DNA of 31,834 bases from the IMG/VR virus record IMGVR_UViG_3300031760_000361, positions 1 to 31,834 of that record, one strand, 5' to 3'. A program made the position numbers and the translations under genes. Source of the DNA: a virus. Below are positions 1 through 31,834 of the stretch, one piece after another. Numbering within the stretch: the stretch's first letter is position 1; each line of letters starts with the position of its first letter. The notes beneath the pieces are model-generated. The model was given only the letters and a program-made list of their open reading frames with translations, had not been told where the DNA came from and made no database searches.

Positions 1-127
1 AACCAAGCATAAACCCTATATATATAATCCATTTATATCTCCTTATCTAAATATTTTTCATAAAGTAATAGTTCTTCACATAATCTATCTATAACTCTAT
101 ATAAAGCTTCTTTATTTAAACTATCTA
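1..127. repeat. Contig-closure overlap, copy 1 (identical to 31708-31834)
   Basis: Compared base by base: 1-127 (aaccaagcataaaccc...tttaaactatcta) equals 31708-31834 with no mismatch. The molecule is therefore circular or circularly permuted with 31,707 unique bp. An exact 127-nt end overlap is typical of de Bruijn assembly of a circle. Confidence 0.95.
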
Positions 128-209
128 GCCATTCTTTTCTTTCTTCTGATGCCATTTCTTCTAGTAATTTATTTTCTTTACCTACTCTTATATAAATACC
201 ACTATTCAT
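33..209 (-). CDS. Small ORF (58 aa), hypothetical; not in supplied ORF track; spans the contig junction
   Basis: ATG at 209-207 overlaps the stop of 202..444 (ATGAATAG). TAA at 35-33 directly abuts the ATG (32-30) of the wrapped copy of the 71-aa gene. Hand translation: MNSGIYIRVGKENKLLEEMASEERKEWLDSLNKEALYRVIDRLCEELLLYEKYLDKEI. It fits the tight translational-coupling pattern of the neighbours. Confidence 0.5.
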   Translation of the reverse strand: MNSGIYIRVGKENKLLEEMASEERKEWLDSLNKEALYRVIDRLCEELLLYEKYLDKEI

Positions 210-444
210 TGTTGTTCTCCTTATCTACTTTATCTAATATTTCTAAAAGTTCTTTTTTATTAAAATCATATAAATGATAGCTATAAAACTGCATACCATT
301 AAAAGCATTATCACACTCATACTTTATATGTTGTTCTATATATTCTCTTACTTCTTTTATGATATTATTTAATCTTTCTATTTCTTCTTGCATATCTAAA
401 TATGTTGGCTGTTTTTGCTTTTTACTATAATCTGGTATTTTCAC
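202..444 (-). CDS. Small coiled-coil protein, EIERLN-motif paralog family
   Basis: 80-aa ORF with a GTG start at 444, preceded by AAGGAGATGATAAAGAGTG. Contains EEIERLNNIIKEV, encoded by the shared 19-nt DNA motif at 368-386. Confidence 0.6.
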   Translation of the reverse strand: MKIPDYSKKQKQPTYLDMQEEIERLNNIIKEVREYIEQHIKYECDNAFNGMQFYSYHLYDFNKKELLEILDKVDKENNNE

Positions 445-450
445 TCTTTA

Positions 451-621
451 TCATCTCCTTTTTTCTTTGATTAAATAATCTTCATATAAGTTTGTTGCTT
501 CATCTGAATTGTCTACTAAATATTCTATTATTTTATTTAATCTTTCTATTTCTTTGTCTTTTTCAACACACATTTCTGTCATTTTTATTAAATCATTTAC
601 TACTGGTTCTATTTCACTCAC
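451..621 (-). CDS. Small ORF (56 aa), fourth EIERLN-motif paralog; not in supplied ORF track
   Basis: GTG at 621-619 overlaps the TGA stop (620-618) of 618..1013 in the same GAGTGA junction used by its neighbours. Its own stop is TGA at 453-451. Hand translation: VSEIEPVVNDLIKMTEMCVEKDKEIERLNKIIEYLVDNSDEATNLYEDYLIKEKRR. Confidence 0.5.
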   Translation of the reverse strand: MSEIEPVVNDLIKMTEMCVEKDKEIERLNKIIEYLVDNSDEATNLYEDYLIKEKRR

Positions 622-2281: not shown

Positions 2282-2617
2282 CTAATTATTTGATATATTT
2301 GTATATTCTCTTTGTAATTGACTCTCTATGAGTCTTATTTCTAGCTTTAACGTGTTAATAGCCTCTTGGTTTGCTTTATATATTGCCTCAGCTACGTCAC
2401 GTTTAAATCTTGCCTCGGCTACTGAGGGGATACCATAACAAGTTAATTGGATAACTCCTATAGCTTCGCCCTCGTTCCTTAGCTTTAATACTTCTTGTCT
2501 TAGAAGTATCTTATAGTCACGTTCCGTTTTAGCGTATTCCGAGCCCGTTTGACGTAACTTTTTAAGCGACGCGCTTAATTGGTCTAGCTTGGCTTGTAAA
2601 TCGTTGTATAAGTCCAT
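2282..2617 (-). CDS. Hypothetical coiled-coil protein in the recombination module
   Basis: 111-aa ORF just downstream of the SSB-like and annealing-protein genes. No catalytic motif recognised. Confidence 0.55.
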   Translation of the reverse strand: MDLYNDLQAKLDQLSASLKKLRQTGSEYAKTERDYKILLRQEVLKLRNEGEAIGVIQLTCYGIPSVAEARFKRDVAEAIYKANQEAINTLKLEIRLIESQLQREYTNISNN

Positions 2618-2626
2618 AAATCACCT

Positions 2627-3004
2627 CTAAAAAGGTAACTCGTATATATCGTCGTTATGTTCTTCCCCAAACTCTTTGAATAAATCGCCTGAGTCATTTT
2701 TAACTTCTTGCTTTACTATATCTTTTTTGCTATCTCTTATTACTTGCTCGGCTGTTTCATATTCCATACAAACTACATAAGGTATGGTACGTTTATCTTT
2801 GCTTAAGTAAAAACTTATCCAAGCTCTCTTTAAATAAATCCTATCTCTATTTTTAGGAGGCTCACATTTAGCGAACTTCACATCTATGTATCCGTTCTGG
2901 TATGAGCCGTCTTGCATTTTCTTACTCATTTGGAGTCTATAAAATTTAGTTCCGTTTATTTCCTTTTCGTATATAGTGTATTGTTTATCGTCTTGTATAT
3001 TCAT
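2627..3004 (-). CDS. SSB-like single-stranded-DNA-binding protein (non-canonical)
   Basis: 125-aa ORF adjacent to the annealing protein. It has an acidic C-terminal tail ending DDIYELPF, which resembles the conserved SSB tip D-D-D-(I/L)-P-F. The N-terminal part is beta-rich and could be an OB fold. Confidence 0.5.
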   Translation of the reverse strand: MNIQDDKQYTIYEKEINGTKFYRLQMSKKMQDGSYQNGYIDVKFAKCEPPKNRDRIYLKRAWISFYLSKDKRTIPYVVCMEYETAEQVIRDSKKDIVKQEVKNDSGDLFKEFGEEHNDDIYELPF

Positions 3005-5143: not shown

Positions 5144-5799
5144 ATCCCTAATCTTCTATTCCTTTCCTCTACGCTTTCTATTTGAAATCTAGGCTTGGTT
5201 TTAGTGTCCTCTCTTCGTTCCCACGTTCTTACACAAGCTTTCCAATCTTTCATTTTGTTTTTACCTACATACCAATCTTTACTTTCGTAAAAGTCGTAGA
5301 ACGCCTCGGCATTTATGCCGTTATTTCTTTCTAAACAATATTGGTTGATTTCTTCTAGTGTAGGTTTGATAAATTTTCTTTTAGCTTTTTCTTTATATTC
5401 TTTATTACTTAATTCTTTATTATTTAATTCTTTATTATTTAATTGTGCTTTATTTTCTATATCTAGCTTTTCTATATCTACATTTTCTATATCTTCATTT
5501 TTGCGATATAGTGGCTTTTCGTATATGTCATAAGTCCAACTATCTATTTTTCCGTTTACATAATTCCTGGTTCTTTGTAAATAGCCAAACTCTTCTAATT
5601 CGTTTAATATAGAGTTAATACAATTACGGCTTTCTAGGTTTATTTCCGTTAATCCAAGTACTGAATAATCCCAATCGTCTGGTAGGCTTAACATTTCACT
5701 AAGTAAACCTTTTGCTTTTAAGCTCATTCTTTTTTCTTTGAAATGGTATTTACCCATTGTTACATAGTCTTTATTTTTATTAACTCTAAACACTGTCAT
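5140..5799 (-). CDS. Replisome organizer / replication initiator (wHTH N-domain, phage conserved C-terminal domain)
   Basis: N-terminal KAKGLLSEMLSLPDDWDYSVLGLTEI...LNELEEFGYL is typical of DnaD/phage replication-protein wHTH domains. C-terminal INAEAFYDFYESKDWYVGKNKMKDWKACVRTWE is the common phage replisome-organizer C-terminal motif. The central linker is coded by 15-bp iterons. Confidence 0.7.
   Translation of the reverse strand: MTVFRVNKNKDYVTMGKYHFKEKRMSLKAKGLLSEMLSLPDDWDYSVLGLTEINLESRNCINSILNELEEFGYLQRTRNYVNGKIDSWTYDIYEKPLYRKNEDIENVDIEKLDIENKAQLNNKELNNKELSNKEYKEKAKRKFIKPTLEEINQYCLERNNGINAEAFYDFYESKDWYVGKNKMKDWKACVRTWERREDTKTKPRFQIESVEERNRRLGI
5397..5499. repeat. Two sets of tandem 15-bp iterons inside the replisome-organizer gene (candidate origin)
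   Basis: Set 1: attctttattactt / aattctttattattt / aattctttattattt / degenerate aattgtgctttattt (5397-5455). Set 2: ttctatatctagctt / ttctatatctacatt / ttctatatcttcatt (5455-5499). They encode NKELN and DIE(N/K)x peptide repeats. Confidence 0.7.
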
Positions 5800-23762: not shown

Positions 23763-24028
23763 TTAAACTCAACTCCTACTTCATCTATTACACCTAAGTA
23801 GGTAATCTTCTTTATTTCGTCAGTTTTAAGCACTCTAACGGGTGTTACTATACGCCCTACTATAAACTTACCGAACTTATCTTTATGTCCTACTATGGTT
23901 ATGTAAATGGGTTTTTTATCGAATAGCTCATCTCTTAGTTTGATTTTCTTTATTAACGCTCCGTCGTAAAATAGGTAGAGTTTCCATCTTTTAATATCGT
24001 GTATCTTCTGGATAAGTTTCTTAAACAT
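23759..24028 (-). CDS. Hypothetical protein (start moved to ATG 24028)
   Basis: The track ORF starts at a TTG (24040) inside the U-run of the upstream terminator-like hairpin. The first ATG (24028-24026) gives MFKKLIQKIH... (89 aa). The stop overlaps the portal start (ATGA). Confidence 0.5.
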   Translation of the reverse strand: MFKKLIQKIHDIKRWKLYLFYDGALIKKIKLRDELFDKKPIYITIVGHKDKFGKFIVGRIVTPVRVLKTDEIKKITYLGVIDEVGVEFK

Positions 24029-24055
24029 AAAAAAACACAACCTCTCTAGGCTGTG
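24029..24055 (-). terminator. Terminator-like hairpin + U7 immediately upstream of the portal-proximal gene
   Basis: Minus strand CACAGCC-tagaga-GGTTGTG (24055-24036, one G-U pair), followed by TTTTTTT (24035-24029). Confidence 0.5.
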
Positions 24056-24106
24056 CTTCTAAATGCGAGTCAATAACTCCAAAATTGCACTTCTTTTTCT
24101 AATTAC

Positions 24107-24134
24107 ATTATAACATCTATTTATTTGTCTACAA
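24107..24134 (-). promoter_or_regulatory. Candidate promoter (TTGTAG-16-TATAAT, extended -10 TGtTATAAT)
   Basis: Minus strand reads TTGTAG (24134-24129) ACAAATAAATAGATGT TATAAT (24112-24107). It lies in a 94-nt intergenic gap, about 45 nt upstream of the terminator-like hairpin. Confidence 0.5.
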
Positions 24135-24338
24135 TTATTTATTTTTAGAAACATTCTCTATAAATGTATAATGTGTCAAGTAAATGTCATATACTTCTAC
24201 TTCCTTGCATATCCTACAAGGTACTGTTACTCGTAAAGGTATCAATTGCTCTATACCCATATCTTTTAAGTTTTGTACGTAGCTTTCTATATCTACCTTA
24301 CATAAGAACCTATGCGAACGTTTGCATTTCAAAATCAT
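24135..24338 (-). CDS. Small Cys-containing hypothetical protein (start moved to ATG 24338)
   Basis: ATG at 24338-24336 overlaps the TGA of the TerL C-terminal ORF (ATGA). The product is MILKCKRSHRFLCKV...VPCRICKEVEVYDI (67 aa), a possible zinc ribbon. Confidence 0.45.
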   Translation of the reverse strand: MILKCKRSHRFLCKVDIESYVQNLKDMGIEQLIPLRVTVPCRICKEVEVYDIYLTHYTFIENVSKNK

Positions 24339-24580
24339 ACTATAGGGCACCTACCACTATCTACAAACTCTCTTATGATATATCTAGTAGCGTCTACTGA
24401 GTTATGAACTATTATTCCGTTCGCAATAAAATTATGAGTATCTTTCACCTCCATATTATAAGTATCTTCTTTGCCTACATATTTTATCTTCTTAACGTGA
24501 GCAATCTTTACACATTTTCCTGTAGGAGTATTTGTTGCAAGTGTATTCTTTGCCACATTTAATGCATTTTCTTGTTTCAT
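24335..24580 (-). CDS. terL: Intein C-terminal half fused to the C-terminal 21 aa of the large terminase
   Basis: Residues 36-60, GKEDTYNMEVKDTHNFIANGIIVHN, match intein blocks F/G and end in His-Asn. Ser+1 follows (24400-24398), then SVDATRYIIREFVDSGRCPIV, which resembles the conserved TerL nuclease C-terminal D-A-x-R-Y region. The ATG at 24580 is preceded by AAGGAAAAGTGGGGTAGATA. Confidence 0.75.
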   Translation of the reverse strand: MKQENALNVAKNTLATNTPTGKCVKIAHVKKIKYVGKEDTYNMEVKDTHNFIANGIIVHNSVDATRYIIREFVDSGRCPIV

Positions 24581-25421
24581 TATCTACCCCACTTTTCCTT
24601 CTATATGCCGATTTGCATTTATTACTACAAAATCTATTCATACCATTATTAATTTTATAGTATTCTTTGCCACAATTTTCGCATATAAATTTTATAGGTT
24701 TCAAAACCCCCAATGATATTTTATATAGTTCTTTATGAAATTCTTTTGCCTTGTCACTTTTATGCCATTCTACAGCTTTAGGTCTTGCTTTTTCATTTAG
24801 ATTTTTTCTATATCGCTCTCTTTGTTCTTCCGTCATTTCTATTCCGTGTAACTTTTTATGTGTTTTGCTAGATATAATTTCTAAATTATTTATCTCGTTA
24901 TTATCTTTGTTATGGTCTATATGGTGTATATCATATCCTTTGGGGATTTTCCCGTTGTATTTCTCCCACACATATCTATGTAGTCTTACTCTTCTCCCAC
25001 TTACAACACCTGATAAATAATACCCTGTTTTCTTATCTTTTTTAAATTTAATATTGTCTATTATTCCGTATCCGTTTTTGTATTCAATTTCCATTTTTAT
25101 CACCCAATATAATTATATCATATATCGGCTCGTATCTATATATCAAACATACAAAATTTCGTCTTTTTCTGTCAACTCACTTAACAATACATATCCTCTC
25201 GTTGTTAATATAGGGTGGTCTGATGTCCCTCTTATCTTATAGCCATTATCAAGCTCTAATTCGTATATATCTACATTTTCCATAGTCTTATGGCAATTAT
25301 AATATTCTTTTTCTACTATAACCCCATTTTCATAAGTGTATACTTTACCCTCAGTATTAACTAATTCTTTTATAGGTATATCTCCTTTTGTTGTGCTTAC
25401 TATAGTTTCACCTACAAGGCA
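24401..25421 (-). mobile_element. Intein region interrupting terL: IntN (25421-25146), free-standing HNH gene, IntC (24580-24401)
   Basis: Cys1 codon TGC is at 25421-25419, directly after ...KKELDH. Block A is CLVGETIV and block B is GTSDHPILT. IntN ends in a TGA stop after 92 aa. The terminal HN/S is at 24406-24398. Confidence 0.75.
24492..25103 (-). CDS. Free-standing HNH homing endonuclease (HNH_3-like + C-terminal zinc-ribbon repeats), copy 3 of 3
   Basis: KGYDIHHIDHNKDNNEINNLEIISSKTHKKLH is the HNH signature. The C-terminal motifs are CENCG...CSNKC and CIKCG...CKDC. Start is GTG 25103 or ATG 25094. An extended -10-like TGATATAAT lies just upstream. Confidence 0.85.
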   Translation of the reverse strand: MIKMEIEYKNGYGIIDNIKFKKDKKTGYYLSGVVSGRRVRLHRYVWEKYNGKIPKGYDIHHIDHNKDNNEINNLEIISSKTHKKLHGIEMTEEQRERYRKNLNEKARPKAVEWHKSDKAKEFHKELYKISLGVLKPIKFICENCGKEYYKINNGMNRFCSNKCKSAYRRKSGVDNETRKCIKCGKEYTCNKYSYRKMCKDCSR

Positions 25422-26738
25422 ATGGTCTAGTTCTTTCTTATAGCAATTTATACCACTATTAGCACTTTTAACTCTATCGTATTGGTAAGAGTCAAACTCT
25501 AATAAGCTCCTATCTACTACGTCTTCTTCATATCTTCCGTCTGGTAGGATATATCTAATACTAGGCTCTTCTAATATGTAGAATATCTCCTTATCTAGTA
25601 GGGATTGTAAGTGCTGTACTCCCTCATCTACTGAACCACTACCTTTACGTGATAAAGTGTGTTTTATTCCGTCAGTTATTAATCTATTATCAAAATGGGA
25701 AGCTTCGGAGTCTATCACTATATCCGTTATAGGTATGTTAGGGTACTTATCCTTAAGTAGTAGTATAAACATTTTAAGCTCTTTAGAGTAATACTCCGTA
25801 GTAGGGTTATCGCCCTCTTTTTTACTATCGTGATAGTAACATTGGAGCCTTACCAGAACCCAACGTCTATCGCTTTGTCTAAAACACAAGGCTATAGGCA
25901 CAAACGTAGTAGGATTTACACTACCATAGTCTATACCGATACCGATTTCACGTATTACTAAGCCGTCCATAGACTTGATTTTATTTATCTTATTAAATAC
26001 TTTACCCTCAGCTATTACCCATTTATTAAATACCTTTTGCTCTCTTAAGGTGCCCGTAAATGAGTGGCACGCTTGCCTTATCTTATCTTCGGTATCTAAT
26101 ACGGGGTTATCATAAGGGAAAAAGACATATTTCTTACTATCTTTTCCGTCTATATATTTTACTTTATAAGGGTGGTTATCGTTACCCTCTACGTTATATG
26201 AGTCTATTCTTTTGTAGTATGGGTGTCCCGAGTAACTCATCATACGCCCTGGTATTTCGTCAAAGCTTTCTTGTAAGGTGTTACTTGAGTATATCCTCGC
26301 CGACTCATCTACCCATACGAATATTAAAGGCTTACCTAGTATCCTATTAAATGATAGGTTGGTATTAAACCCAAAGAAGTAGAACCTCATTCCGTATATA
26401 TCTAAATACTTATCTTGTTGTCCGTATTTTAGGACATACTCTTTACCATTAGTAAAGTGATACTCATTAGTAAGTATTTTCTCTAATGGCTCTATTATAT
26501 TGGACTTGATAGTGTCAGTAGTCCACCCAATTATGGCTCCGTAGTAATCTCGAGGCACGTAATCTTTATTTTTTCGTTGCTCTTGCTCGTATTTTTGCAA
26601 CTCTTTAGCATATTGAATAAAAGAAAAGTCTATACAATGTGTCTTACCACTTTGTGTAGAACCTAGTACGCTTATTTCAGGAATAAAGGGACTTATTATA
26701 TCGTTATAGAGTGCTATTTGTTTCTTCGATAGTATCAT
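25143..26738 (-). CDS. terL: Large terminase N-terminal 439 aa (ATPase + most of the nuclease) fused to the intein N-terminal half (92 aa)
   Basis: Walker A is LGSTQSGKT and Walker B is LIFVWVDES. Nuclease-domain acidic motifs are GIDYGSVNPT and IVIDSEAS. At residue 440 the sequence switches to CLVGETIVSTTKGDIPI...GTSDHPILTTRGYVLLSELTEKDEILYV, then stops. Confidence 0.85.
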   Translation of the reverse strand: MILSKKQIALYNDIISPFIPEISVLGSTQSGKTHCIDFSFIQYAKELQKYEQEQRKNKDYVPRDYYGAIIGWTTDTIKSNIIEPLEKILTNEYHFTNGKEYVLKYGQQDKYLDIYGMRFYFFGFNTNLSFNRILGKPLIFVWVDESARIYSSNTLQESFDEIPGRMMSYSGHPYYKRIDSYNVEGNDNHPYKVKYIDGKDSKKYVFFPYDNPVLDTEDKIRQACHSFTGTLREQKVFNKWVIAEGKVFNKINKIKSMDGLVIREIGIGIDYGSVNPTTFVPIALCFRQSDRRWVLVRLQCYYHDSKKEGDNPTTEYYSKELKMFILLLKDKYPNIPITDIVIDSEASHFDNRLITDGIKHTLSRKGSGSVDEGVQHLQSLLDKEIFYILEEPSIRYILPDGRYEEDVVDRSLLEFDSYQYDRVKSANSGINCYKKELDHCLVGETIVSTTKGDIPIKELVNTEGKVYTYENGVIVEKEYYNCHKTMENVDIYELELDNGYKIRGTSDHPILTTRGYVLLSELTEKDEILYV

Positions 26739-27368: not shown

Positions 27369-27524
27369 TCACTTCCCTACATATTTTATTTTCATTAAAT
27401 TAAATAAACCTTTTCTAAATCCTTGTATATCACCTTTTAGTATTTGTCCTTTAAAAGTTTTGTATTGTTGTTTTGTTAGTCTATGTCTATAATCGTTTAA
27501 TAAAATAAAACATTCTCTAATCAT
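27369..27524 (-). CDS. Small basic ORF (51 aa); not in supplied track
   Basis: ATG at 27524-27522 overlaps the TAG of the methyltransferase gene (ATGATTAG). TGA at 27371-27369 lies just before the terS-like ATG. Hand translation: MIRECFILLNDYRHRLTKQQYKTFKGQILKGDIQGFRKGLFNLMKIKYVGK. Confidence 0.4.
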   Translation of the reverse strand: MIRECFILLNDYRHRLTKQQYKTFKGQILKGDIQGFRKGLFNLMKIKYVGK

Positions 27525-29007
27525 TTAATAACACAGCTTTCTTACCTGTAAAGTTTTCCCATCTTTGTATTATTACATCTACCCACTTTGGTTCTAATTC
27601 CATAACATAGCAATTTCTATTATTTTGTTCACAGGCTATTAATGTACTACCACTTCCACCAAATACATCAAGTACATTTTCATTTTCTCTGCTTGAACTT
27701 TTTATTGCTCTAGTACATAATGCTATTGGTTTTGGAGTTGCGTGTCCTCCTGCGCTTTCTCTTTCTTCTCCACTTGTTTTGCTAAAATGCCATACATTAT
27801 TCATATTATCGTGTGTATTATTAAAGTATGCTCTTGTTGAATAATACTCTGCTTTTCTTTTTTCATACTCTGCTTTTATTCCATTTACATTTTCAAAAAT
27901 ACTTATTCCTTTACTTTTTGCATATTCTTGTAATGCTTTAAAGTTTTCTTCTGTTGGAAAACTCCATTGTGATTTGCTCCACCAATGGTTTACAGTTCTT
28001 CCATCTTTATAACCAAGTGCATTTGCTATTTTTTGGTCGCTTTCACCTATTTTTTTTATTTCTTTTTCTAAATAACTTCTTACTGGTTCCCATTCTTCAA
28101 AATAATTATCTTGGTTAGTATTAAATCCTTGTACTCCACACATAACAAATAAACATTTTTCATCTGCTATTGGATACATTCTAAATTCACTTGCTAATTG
28201 ACCTTGACCATTTCCTTTATCCCAAGTGATAAGATTTCTAAAAGTAATTTTATTTTCTTTTTGCATAGGTTTTAAAATATTTGAATATATATCCATTAAT
28301 GGTTCATCTATTCCCCAACAATACCAACTTCCATTATCTTTTAAATTATTAAATGTTATAGGTATCCATTTTTTATTAAATTCTAGTAAATCATCATAGT
28401 TAAGGTTATCATTTGCTACACCATCATTTTCTTTTTTCATTCCGTAAGGTGGGTCAGTAAATACCATATCAGCCTTAACACCATTCATTAATTTTGCTAC
28501 ATCTTCTTCTTTTGTGCTATCTCCACACATTAATCTATGGTTTCCTAATTGGTATATATCTCCTAATTTTGCTTTTGGTTCTTCTGGAACATCGGGAACT
28601 TCATCTTCTACTATTTCTTGTTCTTCTTCTATATCTAAATCAATATCAAATCCAAAATCACTCATATCAATAGTATCAAAGTTAATTAATTCATCGTTTA
28701 GTATATCTAAATCAAAATCACTATTCATAGTTAATTTATTATGTGCTAGAGTATAGGCTTTTCTTTCTTCATCAGTTAAATGGTCTAGACGTATTATAGG
28801 AACTTCTTTATAACCTAACTCTTTACATGCTATTAATCTACCATGCCCCTCAACTATTTCGTCTTTCCATATACCAATAGGGTCATCCATACCGAATAAC
28901 TCTATAGACTTCTTTATCTGGTCTATTTGCTCTCTAGGGTGTTTCTTAGCGTTATTCTTATATGGTTTTATTGTATCTATATCTACATACTCTATCTTAA
29001 GTTTCAT
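27517..29007 (-). CDS. ParB-like nuclease N-domain fused to a beta-class N6-adenine/N4-cytosine DNA methyltransferase
   Basis: The ParB-N motif is IVEGHGRLIACKELGYKEVP. Methyltransferase motif IV, FTDPPYG, precedes the AdoMet-binding motif I, VLDVFGGSGSTLIA; this order defines the beta class. Confidence 0.85.
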   Translation of the reverse strand: MKLKIEYVDIDTIKPYKNNAKKHPREQIDQIKKSIELFGMDDPIGIWKDEIVEGHGRLIACKELGYKEVPIIRLDHLTDEERKAYTLAHNKLTMNSDFDLDILNDELINFDTIDMSDFGFDIDLDIEEEQEIVEDEVPDVPEEPKAKLGDIYQLGNHRLMCGDSTKEEDVAKLMNGVKADMVFTDPPYGMKKENDGVANDNLNYDDLLEFNKKWIPITFNNLKDNGSWYCWGIDEPLMDIYSNILKPMQKENKITFRNLITWDKGNGQGQLASEFRMYPIADEKCLFVMCGVQGFNTNQDNYFEEWEPVRSYLEKEIKKIGESDQKIANALGYKDGRTVNHWWSKSQWSFPTEENFKALQEYAKSKGISIFENVNGIKAEYEKRKAEYYSTRAYFNNTHDNMNNVWHFSKTSGEERESAGGHATPKPIALCTRAIKSSSRENENVLDVFGGSGSTLIACEQNNRNCYVMELEPKWVDVIIQRWENFTGKKAVLLND

Positions 29008-31523: not shown

Positions 31524-31759
31524 TTATTTCTTTAGTACCCTCCCTTTGTATAAGTTTTCTCTATATATAGGGAAATCACTATTTAATTTAATATCGTGTC
31601 TTATTATCAAGTAATTTATATACTCTTTTTTATTTAAGTTTCTACCCATAGCTTTAGCTCTATCTAAATTGTTAGTGTTACCTATATGCTCTACTCCTCC
31701 AGAATATAACCAAGCATAAACCCTATATATATAATCCATTTATATCTCCTTATCTAAAT
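31493..31759 (-). repeat. ~267-bp direct repeat, copy B
   Basis: See 30899-31165. Its upper end runs into the 127-bp contig-closure overlap. Confidence 0.85.
31524..31739 (-). CDS. Hypothetical 71-aa protein, paralog B
   Basis: Differs from paralog A only at N2D, Q47R and A68V. Confidence 0.6.
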   Translation of the reverse strand: MDYIYRVYAWLYSGGVEHIGNTNNLDRAKAMGRNLNKKEYINYLIIRHDIKLNSDFPIYRENLYKGRVLKK

Positions 31760-31834
31760 ATTTTTCATAAAGTAATAGTTCTTCACATAATCTATCTATA
31801 ACTCTATATAAAGCTTCTTTATTTAAACTATCTA
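31708..31834. repeat. Contig-closure overlap, copy 2 (identical to 1-127)
   Basis: See feature 1-127. 31740-31834 duplicates the 3' part of the 33..209 ORF. Confidence 0.95.

Follow-up and report, generated by a model that had tools for sequence, protein, structure and literature searches.

The sole large-terminase gene (terL) of the window, by which we mean the whole 31,834-nt stretch analysed, is most probably a fractured gene, interrupted by a composite selfish element of a canonically split class-1 intein (Cys1/Ser+1) and a free-standing HNH_3 gene. Since the genome is closed and circular and has this terL only, the arrangement is best explained by trans-splicing of the protein halves to a TerL of 53.7 kDa, and we give this reading a probability of about 0.85. 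As the reading frame of the intein is broken in the window, any splicing must occur in trans. The initial annotation had put trans-splicing forward as the simplest reading, and every computational check proposed there supports it. The arrangement is real and widespread, yet examples of its kind, one terminase included, have been known since 2009. What is new is the position in the nuclease motif, an IntC start that lies within the HNH gene and how large this under-annotated family is.

In the proposed mechanism, TerL-N::IntN, the HNH protein and IntC::TerL-C would be translated as three separate proteins, after which the acidic IntN would pair with its basic partner IntC in a HINT fold. Splicing would start with an N-S acyl shift at Cys1 and proceed through transesterification to Ser+1 and cyclisation of Asn60 to a final O-N shift, giving a native TerL of 460 aa and 53.7 kDa whose junction reads ...ELDH-SVDATRY..., along with free IntN (10.5 kDa) and IntC (6.7 kDa). 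In co-infected cells, the HNH protein may cleave intein-less terL alleles, whose recombinational repair would spread the element.

The interrupted terminase gene, its intein and the HNH gene

On the minus strand, the order is TerL-N(439 aa)::IntN(92 aa), the HNH_3 gene and IntC(60 aa)::TerL-C(21 aa) (Table 1), with predicted masses of 61.9, 23.9 and 9.1 kDa for the three products. The TerL-N::IntN and HNH ORFs share one frame in the window, and the TGA that closes the former is followed 27 nt downstream by a second in-frame stop, TAA. The ends of the window overlap by 127 nt, so it represents a closed circular genome, and no second terL is present anywhere in it. Thus far the initial annotation holds: the three ORFs lie where it had placed them, the Walker motifs are present, Cys1 directly follows ...KKELDH, the halves are as described (92 aa of IntN; IntC followed by Ser+1 and 20 residues) and this terL is the only one.

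Table 1. Coordinates of the features of the split terL locus in the window
Feature	Position	Strand	Description
TerL-N::IntN ORF	26738..25143	-	531 aa
terL N-extein, 439 codons	25422..26738	-	ATPase domain and most of the nuclease domain; ends ...NCYKKELDH
IntN, 92 codons	25146..25421	-	Cys1 in CLVGETIV (block A); Thr66/His69 in GTSDHP (block B)
Stop TGA closing TerL-N::IntN	25143..25145	-	Identical in L001 and L002
Spacer, 48 nt	25095..25142	-	Promoter-like TTGATA-N18-TATGAT, TGATATAAT; GGGTGA RBS upstream of HNH
HNH ORF	25103/25094..24492	-	203/200 aa
HNH_3 free-standing (putative homing-endonuclease) gene	24492..25094	-	200 aa from ATG; PF13392, E 8.9e-16
IntC::TerL-C ORF	24580..24335	-	81 aa
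IntC, 60 codons	24401..24580	-	Leader of ~21 aa, then blocks F and G (TYNMEV..THNF..IIVHN)
terL C-extein and stop	24335..24400	-	Ser+1, then 20 residues (SVDATRYIIREFVDSGRCPIV); matches the C-termini of 460-aa homologs

The host protein has the architecture of a large terminase, namely an N-terminal ATPase (Walker A GSTQSGKT, Walker B IFVWVDES) and a C-terminal RNase H-like nuclease. Annotated phage TerLs are matched by tblastn with E values down to 9e-21; the direct Pfam match (Terminase_6N, E 0.049) is below the cut-off, neither this TerL nor the HNH protein has a family in NCBIfam and a PDB sequence search with the spliced TerL gave chance matches only. This last search was replaced by a Foldseek comparison of the AlphaFold model of a homolog (P0003), which matched the TerL of phage D6E (5oe8) with an E value of 4e-24. 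The model has a helix at 439-453, and the C-extein is thus predicted to form the terminal helix of the nuclease domain, with D442 and Y446 invariant in 30 sequences. The 439+21 aa of the exteins align collinearly with TerL proteins that carry no interruption, and the ligated product predicted in the initial annotation has the same length as dozens of intein-less homologs, which are exactly 460 aa long, up to 91% identical and uninterrupted across the junction. In these proteins the junction reads ...ELDH/S(I/V)DATRY..., which places the insertion site within the conserved nuclease motif DH/SxDAxRY.

Both halves of the intein show Hint-domain similarity above curated cut-offs in the HMM searches that had been proposed. 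NCBIfam intein_Nterm (TIGR01445) matches residues 440-512 of the long ORF with 44.3 bits (cut-off 24.5; profile positions 1-83), and intein_Cterm (TIGR01443) matches residues 40-61 of the short ORF with 36.1 bits (cut-off 15.6), ending at Ser61, so that the edges of the matches fall exactly at Cys1 (Cys440) and Ser+1 (Ser61). Additionally, Pfam PF14890 is covered at positions 9-93 of 155 by the long ORF (E 2e-6) and at positions 118-155 of 155 by the short one (E 5e-8); consequently, the halves are complementary and broken at the usual position of the endonuclease domain. Among solved structures, the NrdJ-1 split intein (8ubs; E 1.6e-13) is the nearest relative, in an alignment that covers both halves. 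A Cys1 nucleophile, the T-x-x-H of block B and a C-terminal His-Asn before Ser+1 (...THNFIANGIIVHN/S, with IntC ending in IIVHN) indicate a class-1 intein. It is naturally split at the canonical site, between blocks N4 and F, its halves lie on separate ORFs and these are complementary in charge: IntN is acidic (net charge -8, pI 4.6) and IntC basic (net charge +4, pI 9.4; +6 in its first strand). An alignment of 14-15 family members shows conservation of Cys1, the TxxH of block B, both C-terminal blocks (F and G), the final Asn and a nucleophile at +1. At one position of block F an Asn stands in place of the Asp of many class-1 inteins, which counts against the main reading; this Asn is kept family-wide, viable phages included.

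The HNH protein has an HH..N..H motif, two Cys4 zinc ribbons and a pI of 9.6, and homologs of it are found at the 3′ end of terL in many phages. An HNH ORF at 24492..25103 had been claimed, and the ORF is indeed present, but its likelier start is ATG 25094, with a GGGTGA RBS upstream, and not GTG 25103. The spacer may have a regulatory role: L021, whose element is 26% diverged, has a 23-nt block of it (CGATATATGATATAATTATATTG) unchanged. The promoter-like matches, which would make it a candidate promoter, exceed shuffles by only ~1.5 sd in this AT-rich DNA. A repeated phage promoter consensus was rejected, as the motif occurs only once in the window. We also rejected a packaging role for the HNH protein of the kind of HK97 gp74, since the gene is absent in intein-less sisters and decayed in L002, L016, L029 and BL3.

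The IntC leader (~21 aa) overlaps the 3′ end of the HNH gene in a different frame, and the start codon of IntC::TerL-C, probably ATG 24580, thus lies inside the HNH ORF. The context of this start is kept in seven of ten split loci. The Shine-Dalgarno-like sequence there is weak and GTG 24556, eight codons downstream, is an alternative, both of which count against the main reading. A further possibility, which we regard as doubtful, is that intein and HNH gene form one co-evolved mobile module, in which the HNH sequence would supply the RBS and start of IntC::TerL-C (through its conserved G-(V/I)-D-(N/D) codons), and which would have travelled as one unit into unrelated TerL families and between two adjacent nuclease-motif sites. 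If so, expression of an essential 9-kDa TerL fragment would be tied to keeping the 3′ end of the HNH gene. A homing endonuclease gene would thereby be protected against deletion in a manner not recognised before, and the activation of the terminase nuclease might also be timed in this way.

Relatives, selection and mobility

Stops, frames and layout are identical to those of the window in two independent assemblies from other samples, L001 and L002. The same layout is found in L021, L022 and L023, whose element differs by 26% of its DNA and in which, as seen in L021, TerL-N::IntN and HNH lie in different frames; layouts are similar in L003, L004, L006, L008, L010 and L016. Among isolated phages, the layout is complete in Lactobacillus phage CL2 (predicted junction ...KAHDH-CMDATR...), and in Brochothrix phage BL3 the split intein persists next to a remnant of the HNH gene; their short IntC::TerL-C ORF is unannotated in the former and has no assigned function in the latter. 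A search of papers other than the original descriptions of CL2 and BL3 found none on the split terL of either phage. In L002, BL3, L016 and L029 the HNH gene is truncated or decayed, yet the IntC ORF is intact with a start of its own. The TerL frame of phiCDHM19, TJE1 and Highwayman is open through the intein, with HNH nested out of frame. By contrast with these occupied alleles, the intein-less relatives L013 and L014 have an empty site and no HNH gene; the intein-less allele reads ...GAACTAGACCAT/AGTATAGACGCTACT... at the insertion site (also as ...AAAGAACTAGACCAT/AGTATAGACGCTACTAGATAT...). Another relative, vB_EauM-23, may have an intron at exactly this site; an Rfam intron search found none in vB_EauM-23, CL2 or BL3.

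A word-indexed protein search with the fused intein recovered three IntC ORFs only, and it was an exhaustive search that revealed the family, with intact short IntC::TerL-C ORFs in at least 36 clusters at 50% identity. At closer range, a search for near-identical DNA in the phage collection gave no match, and JGI metagenomes, GTDB genomes and IMG/VR yielded no additional close copies when scanned with a codon-degenerate pattern for GTSDHPILTTRGY.

Comparison of the window with L001 and L002 shows purifying selection on both intein halves, both exteins and the HNH gene: IntN has no changes at all, the IntC core and C-extein have synonymous changes only (pN = 0) and the pN/pS of HNH is ~0.1. Within the element, L021 and L022 are alike at all but 1 of 1,160 nt, against differences of 3.9% and 14.5% in its flanks. 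The element is thus far younger than its flanks in this pair, which is the footprint of homing. The switch of the Ser+1 codon from AGY to TCN falls precisely on the junction. A 458-nt block, which comprises IntN, the spacer and the HNH 5′ end, is the same in the window, L001 and L002, next to an HNH 3′ part with a pS of 0.07-0.20; a simple single transfer does not account for this pattern, which is less clear-cut than that of L021/L022 and counts against the main reading. Presence or absence at a fixed site among close relatives, together with an element younger than its flanks, suggests that the HNH gene is a homing-endonuclease gene.

Weighing other readings of the split gene

Complementation without a peptide bond, in which IntN and IntC would be a mere dimerisation module joining TerL-N and the 21-aa C-terminal helix, is unlikely. 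Genes in pieces that work unspliced do exist, for instance the HNH-split NrdA of phage Aeh1, which consists of two chains (PMC2677866, PMC3045599), and the charge complementarity of the halves fits simple association as well. However, residues needed only for splicing (Cys1, the Thr and His of block B, the penultimate His, the terminal Asn and the +1 Ser/Cys) are conserved over a family of 35-100% identity, and an intein of ~17 kDa left in the active-site motif of the nuclease would probably obstruct it. Still less probable is a dead gene, that is, a terL destroyed when a homing endonuclease invaded a once-contiguous intein, in a phage that would be defective or satellite-dependent. Decay occurs in this lineage, as seen from a 108-nt deletion within the terL of L001 and a nonsense mutation in the HNH gene of L002. 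Against general decay stand the purifying selection on intein halves and exteins, the layout kept over 26% DNA divergence, the split arrangement of the propagating isolates CL2 and BL3, the 36 or more clusters of intact short ORFs and the fact that this is the sole terL of a complete genome.

The shared frame of TerL-N::IntN and HNH in the window, and the open TerL frame of phiCDHM19, TJE1 and Highwayman, would also fit recoding, either by readthrough and a +1 frameshift, giving one continuous TerL-intein-HNH chain for splicing in cis, or by frameshifting into an HNH-IntC fusion. We consider this very improbable, as a TGA and a TAA lie in frame between IntN and HNH, the two ORFs are in different frames in L021, no slippery site was seen and the self-started IntC ORFs stay intact where HNH is truncated or decayed (L002, BL3, L016, L029). 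Least probable of all are a sequencing or assembly artefact, which the initial annotation had named as fatal to its claim, and RNA splicing of a group I/II intron carrying HNH. The former is excluded because stops, frames and layout recur in independent assemblies from different samples and in isolated phages. As for the latter, HNH_3 genes are frequently intron-borne in phages (PMC10448857), and the possible intron of vB_EauM-23 lies at the same site; yet an Rfam scan of 24000..26000 returned no intron model at E <= 1 (two chance matches only), the intervening DNA is bordered by complete intein blocks, the spacer is just 48 nt long and the HNH ORF overlaps IntC. Trans-splicing of two separately translated halves is thus preferred over each of these readings.

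Significance and comparison with known systems

A canonical-site Cys1/Ser+1 split intein akin to the fast NrdJ-1, with dozens of diverged orthologs, provides candidate orthogonal protein-ligation tools. As CL2 and BL3 are cultivable, one can test directly whether an essential virion-assembly enzyme is trans-spliced in vivo and whether this step is rate-limiting. One HNH family is seen free-standing by terL, between split halves, nested out of frame in a contiguous intein and as decayed remnants, a living series for the model of Dassa et al. in which inteins gain and lose endonucleases. Additionally, since the short IntC::TerL-C ORF is routinely missed, terL appears truncated in many phage genomes.

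Whether such an arrangement had been described for a terminase was left open in the initial annotation; it had, both by Dassa et al. in 2009 and for AceL-TerL and GOS-TerL. The fractured genes of Dassa et al. comprise gp41, NrdJ, NrdA, IMPDH, DnaE, ligase and one gp17-like terminase (PMC2677866). The window has a fractured gene in their sense, with collinear exteins, a split-intein half on each of two ORFs, a same-strand free-standing HNH_3 gene between them and a phage context, and it shares the break at the canonical endonuclease-insertion position, the acidic IntN and basic IntC, and an intein nearest their NrdJ-1. In contrast, their endonucleases are GIY-YIG or Vsr-like only, HNH-type fracturing being merely predicted, and their terminase is T4 gp17-like, with an atypical break and a 122-aa IntC (PMC2677866), whereas the window has a PBSX/D6E-like TerL, a nuclease-motif site, an HNH endonuclease and an IntC start nested in the HNH ORF. 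AceL-TerL and GOS-TerL are likewise naturally split inteins of phage large terminases, for which trans-splicing has been shown experimentally, with an IntN of 25-37 aa, an IntC of 104-115 aa and Cys/Cys or Ser/Cys nucleophiles (PMC11766414). With its IntN of 92 aa, IntC of 60 aa and Cys1/Ser+1, the intein of the window falls outside this atypical group. A free-standing HNH-family gene between IntN- and IntC-bearing ORFs has been reported for PolB of an isolated phage; the host gene differs from TerL, and that report has no comparative or selection evidence.

Mycobacteriophage TerL inteins occupy seven sites, all in the ATPase domain (Kelley et al. 2016, PMC5050341), and are all contiguous, none of them split, most with LAGLIDADG endonucleases (PMC5050341). 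They share with the window the targeting of a functional TerL motif and, probably, a mobility driven by homing endonucleases, but the intein of the window is split, HNH-type and located in the nuclease motif. Finally, inteins with out-of-frame or antisense endonuclease ORFs have been proposed to originate from the invasion of an intein by a free-standing endonuclease gene (bioRxiv 10.1101/2025.01.02.630785). The same origin is proposed here, and the sister elements of phiCDHM19, TJE1 and Highwayman have such a nested out-of-frame HNH, whereas in the window the reading frame of the intein is truly broken.

Anatomy of the split terL locus

The three minus-strand ORFs of the locus lie exactly at the coordinates reported in the initial annotation. 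The HNH ORF does have its own start, as was claimed there, although this start is better placed at ATG 25094, with a GGGTGA ribosome-binding site, than at GTG 25103. A second in-frame stop (TAA) is found 27 nt past the TGA of IntN, the N-terminal intein half.

Features of the terL locus in the window
Feature	Position	Strand	Description
TerL-N::IntN ORF	26738..25143	-	531 aa; ends in TGA
TerL-N extein	residues 1-439 of the 531-aa ORF	-	Walker A GSTQSGKT; Walker B IFVWVDES
IntN	from Cys440, 92 aa	-	NCBIfam intein_Nterm; Pfam intein model
Spacer block CGATATATGATATAATTATATTG	25102..25124	-	23 nt; just upstream of HNH
HNH_3 endonuclease gene	25094..24492	-	PF13392, E 8.9e-16
IntC::TerL-C ORF	24580..24335	-	81 aa: 60 aa of IntC ending ...IIVHN, Ser+1 and 20 further residues

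TerL-N resembles annotated phage large terminases (tblastn, E down to 9e-21), and the Hint-domain similarity proposed for both intein halves was recovered. NCBIfam intein_Nterm scores 44.3 bits in the long ORF (cut-off 24.5) and intein_Cterm 36.1 bits in the short one (cut-off 15.6), with match edges that coincide exactly with Cys1, the first intein residue, and Ser+1, the first C-extein residue. The Pfam intein model, of 155 positions, aligns to the long ORF at 9-93 and to the short ORF at 118-155. For a fused IntN+IntC query, the best solved structure is the NrdJ-1 split intein (8ubs, E 1.6e-13), and Npu DnaE and gp41-1 are also matched. The spacer block occurs once in the window, contains the extended -10-like TGATATAAT and is unchanged in L021, a contig of a sister TerL lineage whose element is otherwise 26% diverged; its probable role is as a promoter or other regulatory site serving HNH and IntC::TerL-C.

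A protein search returned 984 relatives, of which the best 120 are nearly all 459-464 aa long and mostly 460-462 aa, in agreement with the 460 aa (439+21) of the predicted spliced TerL. These relatives, at most 91% identical to the window's TerL, are uninterrupted across the junction (...NCYKKELDH^S(I/V)DATRYII.EF.DTGR.P.V, where ^ marks the insertion point), so the 439+21 aa extein is indeed collinear with an uninterrupted TerL, as had been suggested. D438, H439, D442 and Y446 do not vary among 30 aligned sequences; on this basis, the insertion motif is probably the acidic motif conserved near the C-terminus of RNase H-like terminase nucleases. The AlphaFold model of P0003, an intein-less TerL homolog, has a pLDDT of 78.8 and matches the large terminase of phage D6E (5oe8, E 4e-24); in it, the C-extein is the terminal helix 439-453.

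In the nearest intein-less genomes (L013 and L014), the HNH gene is absent and terL is directly followed by a 71-aa ORF, the one that follows the element in the window. The empty site reads ...GAACTAGACCAT^AG(T/C)ATAGACGCTACT..., whereas the Ser+1 codon is TCA or TCT in occupied alleles, and four differences between empty and occupied alleles cluster exactly at the junction. This clustering and the switch of codon family indicate that the element brought its own +1/+2 codons.

Integrity of the divided gene

The interruption is not an assembly or sequencing artefact, and the gene is not a dead one. L001 and L002, related contigs from two other samples, have the same stops, spacer and frames as the window, and the sister lineage (L021, L022 and L023) keeps the three-ORF layout and the IntC start (MKQEN...) in an element copy 73.6% identical in DNA. 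Among the window, L001 and L002, pS is 0.17-0.20 and pN about 0.01 in TerL-N, and the values for HNH are 0.07-0.20 and 0.008-0.017, respectively; all changes in the IntC core and C-extein are synonymous, and IntN has none. These substitutions show purifying selection on HNH as well as on each half of the intein. In the HNH/IntC overlap of the same three sequences, substitutions are synonymous in the HNH frame but non-synonymous in the IntC leader, which is thus unconstrained.

The statement that this closed genome holds no other terL was upheld by PHROG scans of the large ORFs and by tblastn with 13 diverse TerLs, none of which found a second copy in the window. Positions 1..127 are identical to 31708..31834, a circular-assembly overlap indicating a complete, circular genome of about 31.7 kb. 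An Rfam search of 24000..26000 found no intron. With both intein halves above their cut-offs, collinear exteins, a sole terL and selection, the trans-splicing reading of the split TerL is supported.

Near 5190..5201 (window about 25809..25904), the element-bearing contig L001 has lost 108 nt in frame between direct repeats of 12 nt (AATCCTACTACG), and with them 36 aa of the TerL nuclease domain. This points either to a defective variant or to sequence collapsed during assembly. In L002, HNH has a premature stop (AAA to TAA, Lys125, window 24722) and Ile is replaced by Lys in HHIDH. The two halves of the intein are undamaged in this contig; its HNH gene is decaying independently of them.

As IntC requires about 39 residues before Asn60, its initiation has to occur upstream of the HNH stop, where ATG 24580 and GTG 24556 are the only candidate starts. 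The ATG arises inside the HNH codons G-(V/I)-D-(N/D) in 7 of 10 split loci, with Shine-Dalgarno-like Gly-codon purines 6-9 nt upstream; the GTG, formed by CxxCG codons, is likewise conserved among split loci. IntC ORFs are intact despite the HNH nonsense codon (L002) or truncation (Brochothrix phage BL3 and contigs L016 and L029), which argues that IntC expression is independent of full-length HNH translation.

Distribution and mobility of the element

In a scan of viral contigs with the IntN region, TerL backbones that differ widely from one another proved to be occupied at this same site (..DH^CLVGET..). The fractured layout, in which an IntC ORF overlaps the 3′ end of a homologous HNH gene, is present in L003, L004, L006, L008, L010/L011 and L016, and other IntN-matching contigs have contiguous inteins of about 330 aa. 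Isolated phages cover every state of the element. Lactobacillus phage CL2 (KR905067) has the full fractured layout, including an IntC::TerL-C ORF (2490..2774) missing from its GenBank annotation, and phage BL3 retains the split intein, with HNH reduced to a 40-aa remnant (gp2, gp3) and IntC::TerL-C as the unnamed "gp3" (2311..2607); the annotated terL of both records is actually TerL-N::IntN. A contiguous intein that leaves the TerL frame open for about 230 codons, with the HNH gene nested out of frame inside it, is found in C. difficile phage phiCDHM19, Tetrasphaera TJE1 and Acinetobacter Highwayman; the annotation of these proteins is simply a long "terminase large subunit". Pseudomonas PAE1 and Salmonella Shemara have an intact, intein-less terL and a free-standing HNH gene of the same family directly downstream.

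An exhaustive search with the 81-aa ORF gave 1,359 matches. When these are clustered at 50% identity, the best 150 representatives include 36 short ORFs of IntC::TerL-C type, 65-155 aa long, with the pattern leader-...DVYNMEV..HNF...IVHN^[CS]xDAxRY. Conservation throughout the family extends to Cys1, TxxH in block B, VYN(M/L)EV..HNF in block F, the terminal Asn and a +1 Ser or Cys. By sequence comparison, the block F Asn, at a position that is Asp in many inteins, characterises the family and is also found in viable phages; it is not a defect. L029 (a 1,093-nt Logan contig, SRR22923228) reveals a second insertion point within the same nuclease motif. Its TerL is of the window's own family, and a related split intein has entered it four residues further on (..ELDHSIDA^CLTGD.. 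and ..VVHN^CRYILKEW..), with HNH decayed to fragments in two frames.

Two other loci may be mentioned here. L030 (ENA ERZ28614295) encodes, at 172..591, a 139-aa ORF in which the last ~20 IntN residues are joined straight to IntC::TerL-C, without an HNH gene or upstream terL-N; it may be a relic, a rearrangement or a chimeric contig. In Exiguobacterium phage vB_EauM-23 (MH844558, 2200..3140), terL ends in ..EDKNNH-SMAA* and is followed by an HNH gene 49% identical to the window's and by an ORF-less stretch that encodes ..CDATRYAMEMDM.. and has no intein blocks. Joining ..CACTCGAT^TGACGCA.. would give back NNHSIDATRY, and a group I intron bearing an HNH gene of this family may occupy the same site in terL; an Rfam search gave no match.

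Between L021 and L022, divergence is 3.9% in TerL-N and 14.5% immediately past terL, but the element, taken with the short stretches of extein beside it, has a single difference in 1,160 nt. The element is thus much younger than its surroundings, a sequence pattern as would be expected of homing with co-conversion. Additionally, a 458-nt block (25429..24972), which takes in IntN, the spacer and 123 nt at the 5′ end of HNH and whose left edge is at most 8 nt from the insertion point, is identical in the window, L001 and L002; for IntN by itself, some 10 synonymous differences were expected and none is seen. The remainder of HNH, towards its 3′ end, is about as diverged among the three (pS 0.07-0.20) as terL, whose exteins have a pS of about 0.18, making a mosaic. 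We tentatively read this mosaic as partial gene conversion between element-bearing phages; constraint at the DNA/RNA level is a second candidate cause of the identical block.

Upstream of the terminase module, the window encodes a 496-aa ParB_N-DNA methyltransferase fusion (27517..29007, minus strand; phrog_498, E 3e-119), in whose position L001 and L021 have glycosyltransferase and other genes (Mom-like in L001, NrdD-like in L021).

Proposed mechanism and known systems

We infer the following mechanism of splicing and HNH targeting. Three separate polypeptides of 61.9, 23.9 and 9.1 kDa would be produced, IntN and IntC (computed charge -8, pI 4.6, and +4, pI 9.4, respectively) would associate, and class-1 splicing via Cys1 and Ser+1 would yield a 53.7-kDa TerL. 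The same nucleophile pair is used by NrdJ-1 and gp41-1. The HNH enzyme would target the conserved nuclease-motif DNA in intein-less terL alleles.

The finding is real and its kind is already known. The concept of fractured genes comes from Dassa et al. (2009, PMC2677866), whose set contains a single gp17-like terminase with an atypical break point; the endonucleases there are GIY-YIG or Vsr-like, in contrast to the HNH gene of the window, and HNH cases were predicted. The experimentally active TerL inteins AceL-TerL and GOS-TerL are atypically split (PMC11766414), whereas the window's is canonically split. In mycobacteriophages, every TerL intein is contiguous and sits in the ATPase domain (PMC5050341), unlike this split intein in the nuclease motif. 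Out-of-frame endonuclease ORFs in inteins have also been described, with the same invasion origin proposed (preprint 2025, 10.1101/2025.01.02.630785). Our literature searches found no paper on this split intein of the TerL nuclease motif and its HNH gene. Compared with these systems, the new features are a TerL intein, split canonically, with an HNH gene between its halves, the insertion site within the nuclease motif, the IntC start nested inside the HNH gene, and a large unannotated family with all evolutionary states of the element.
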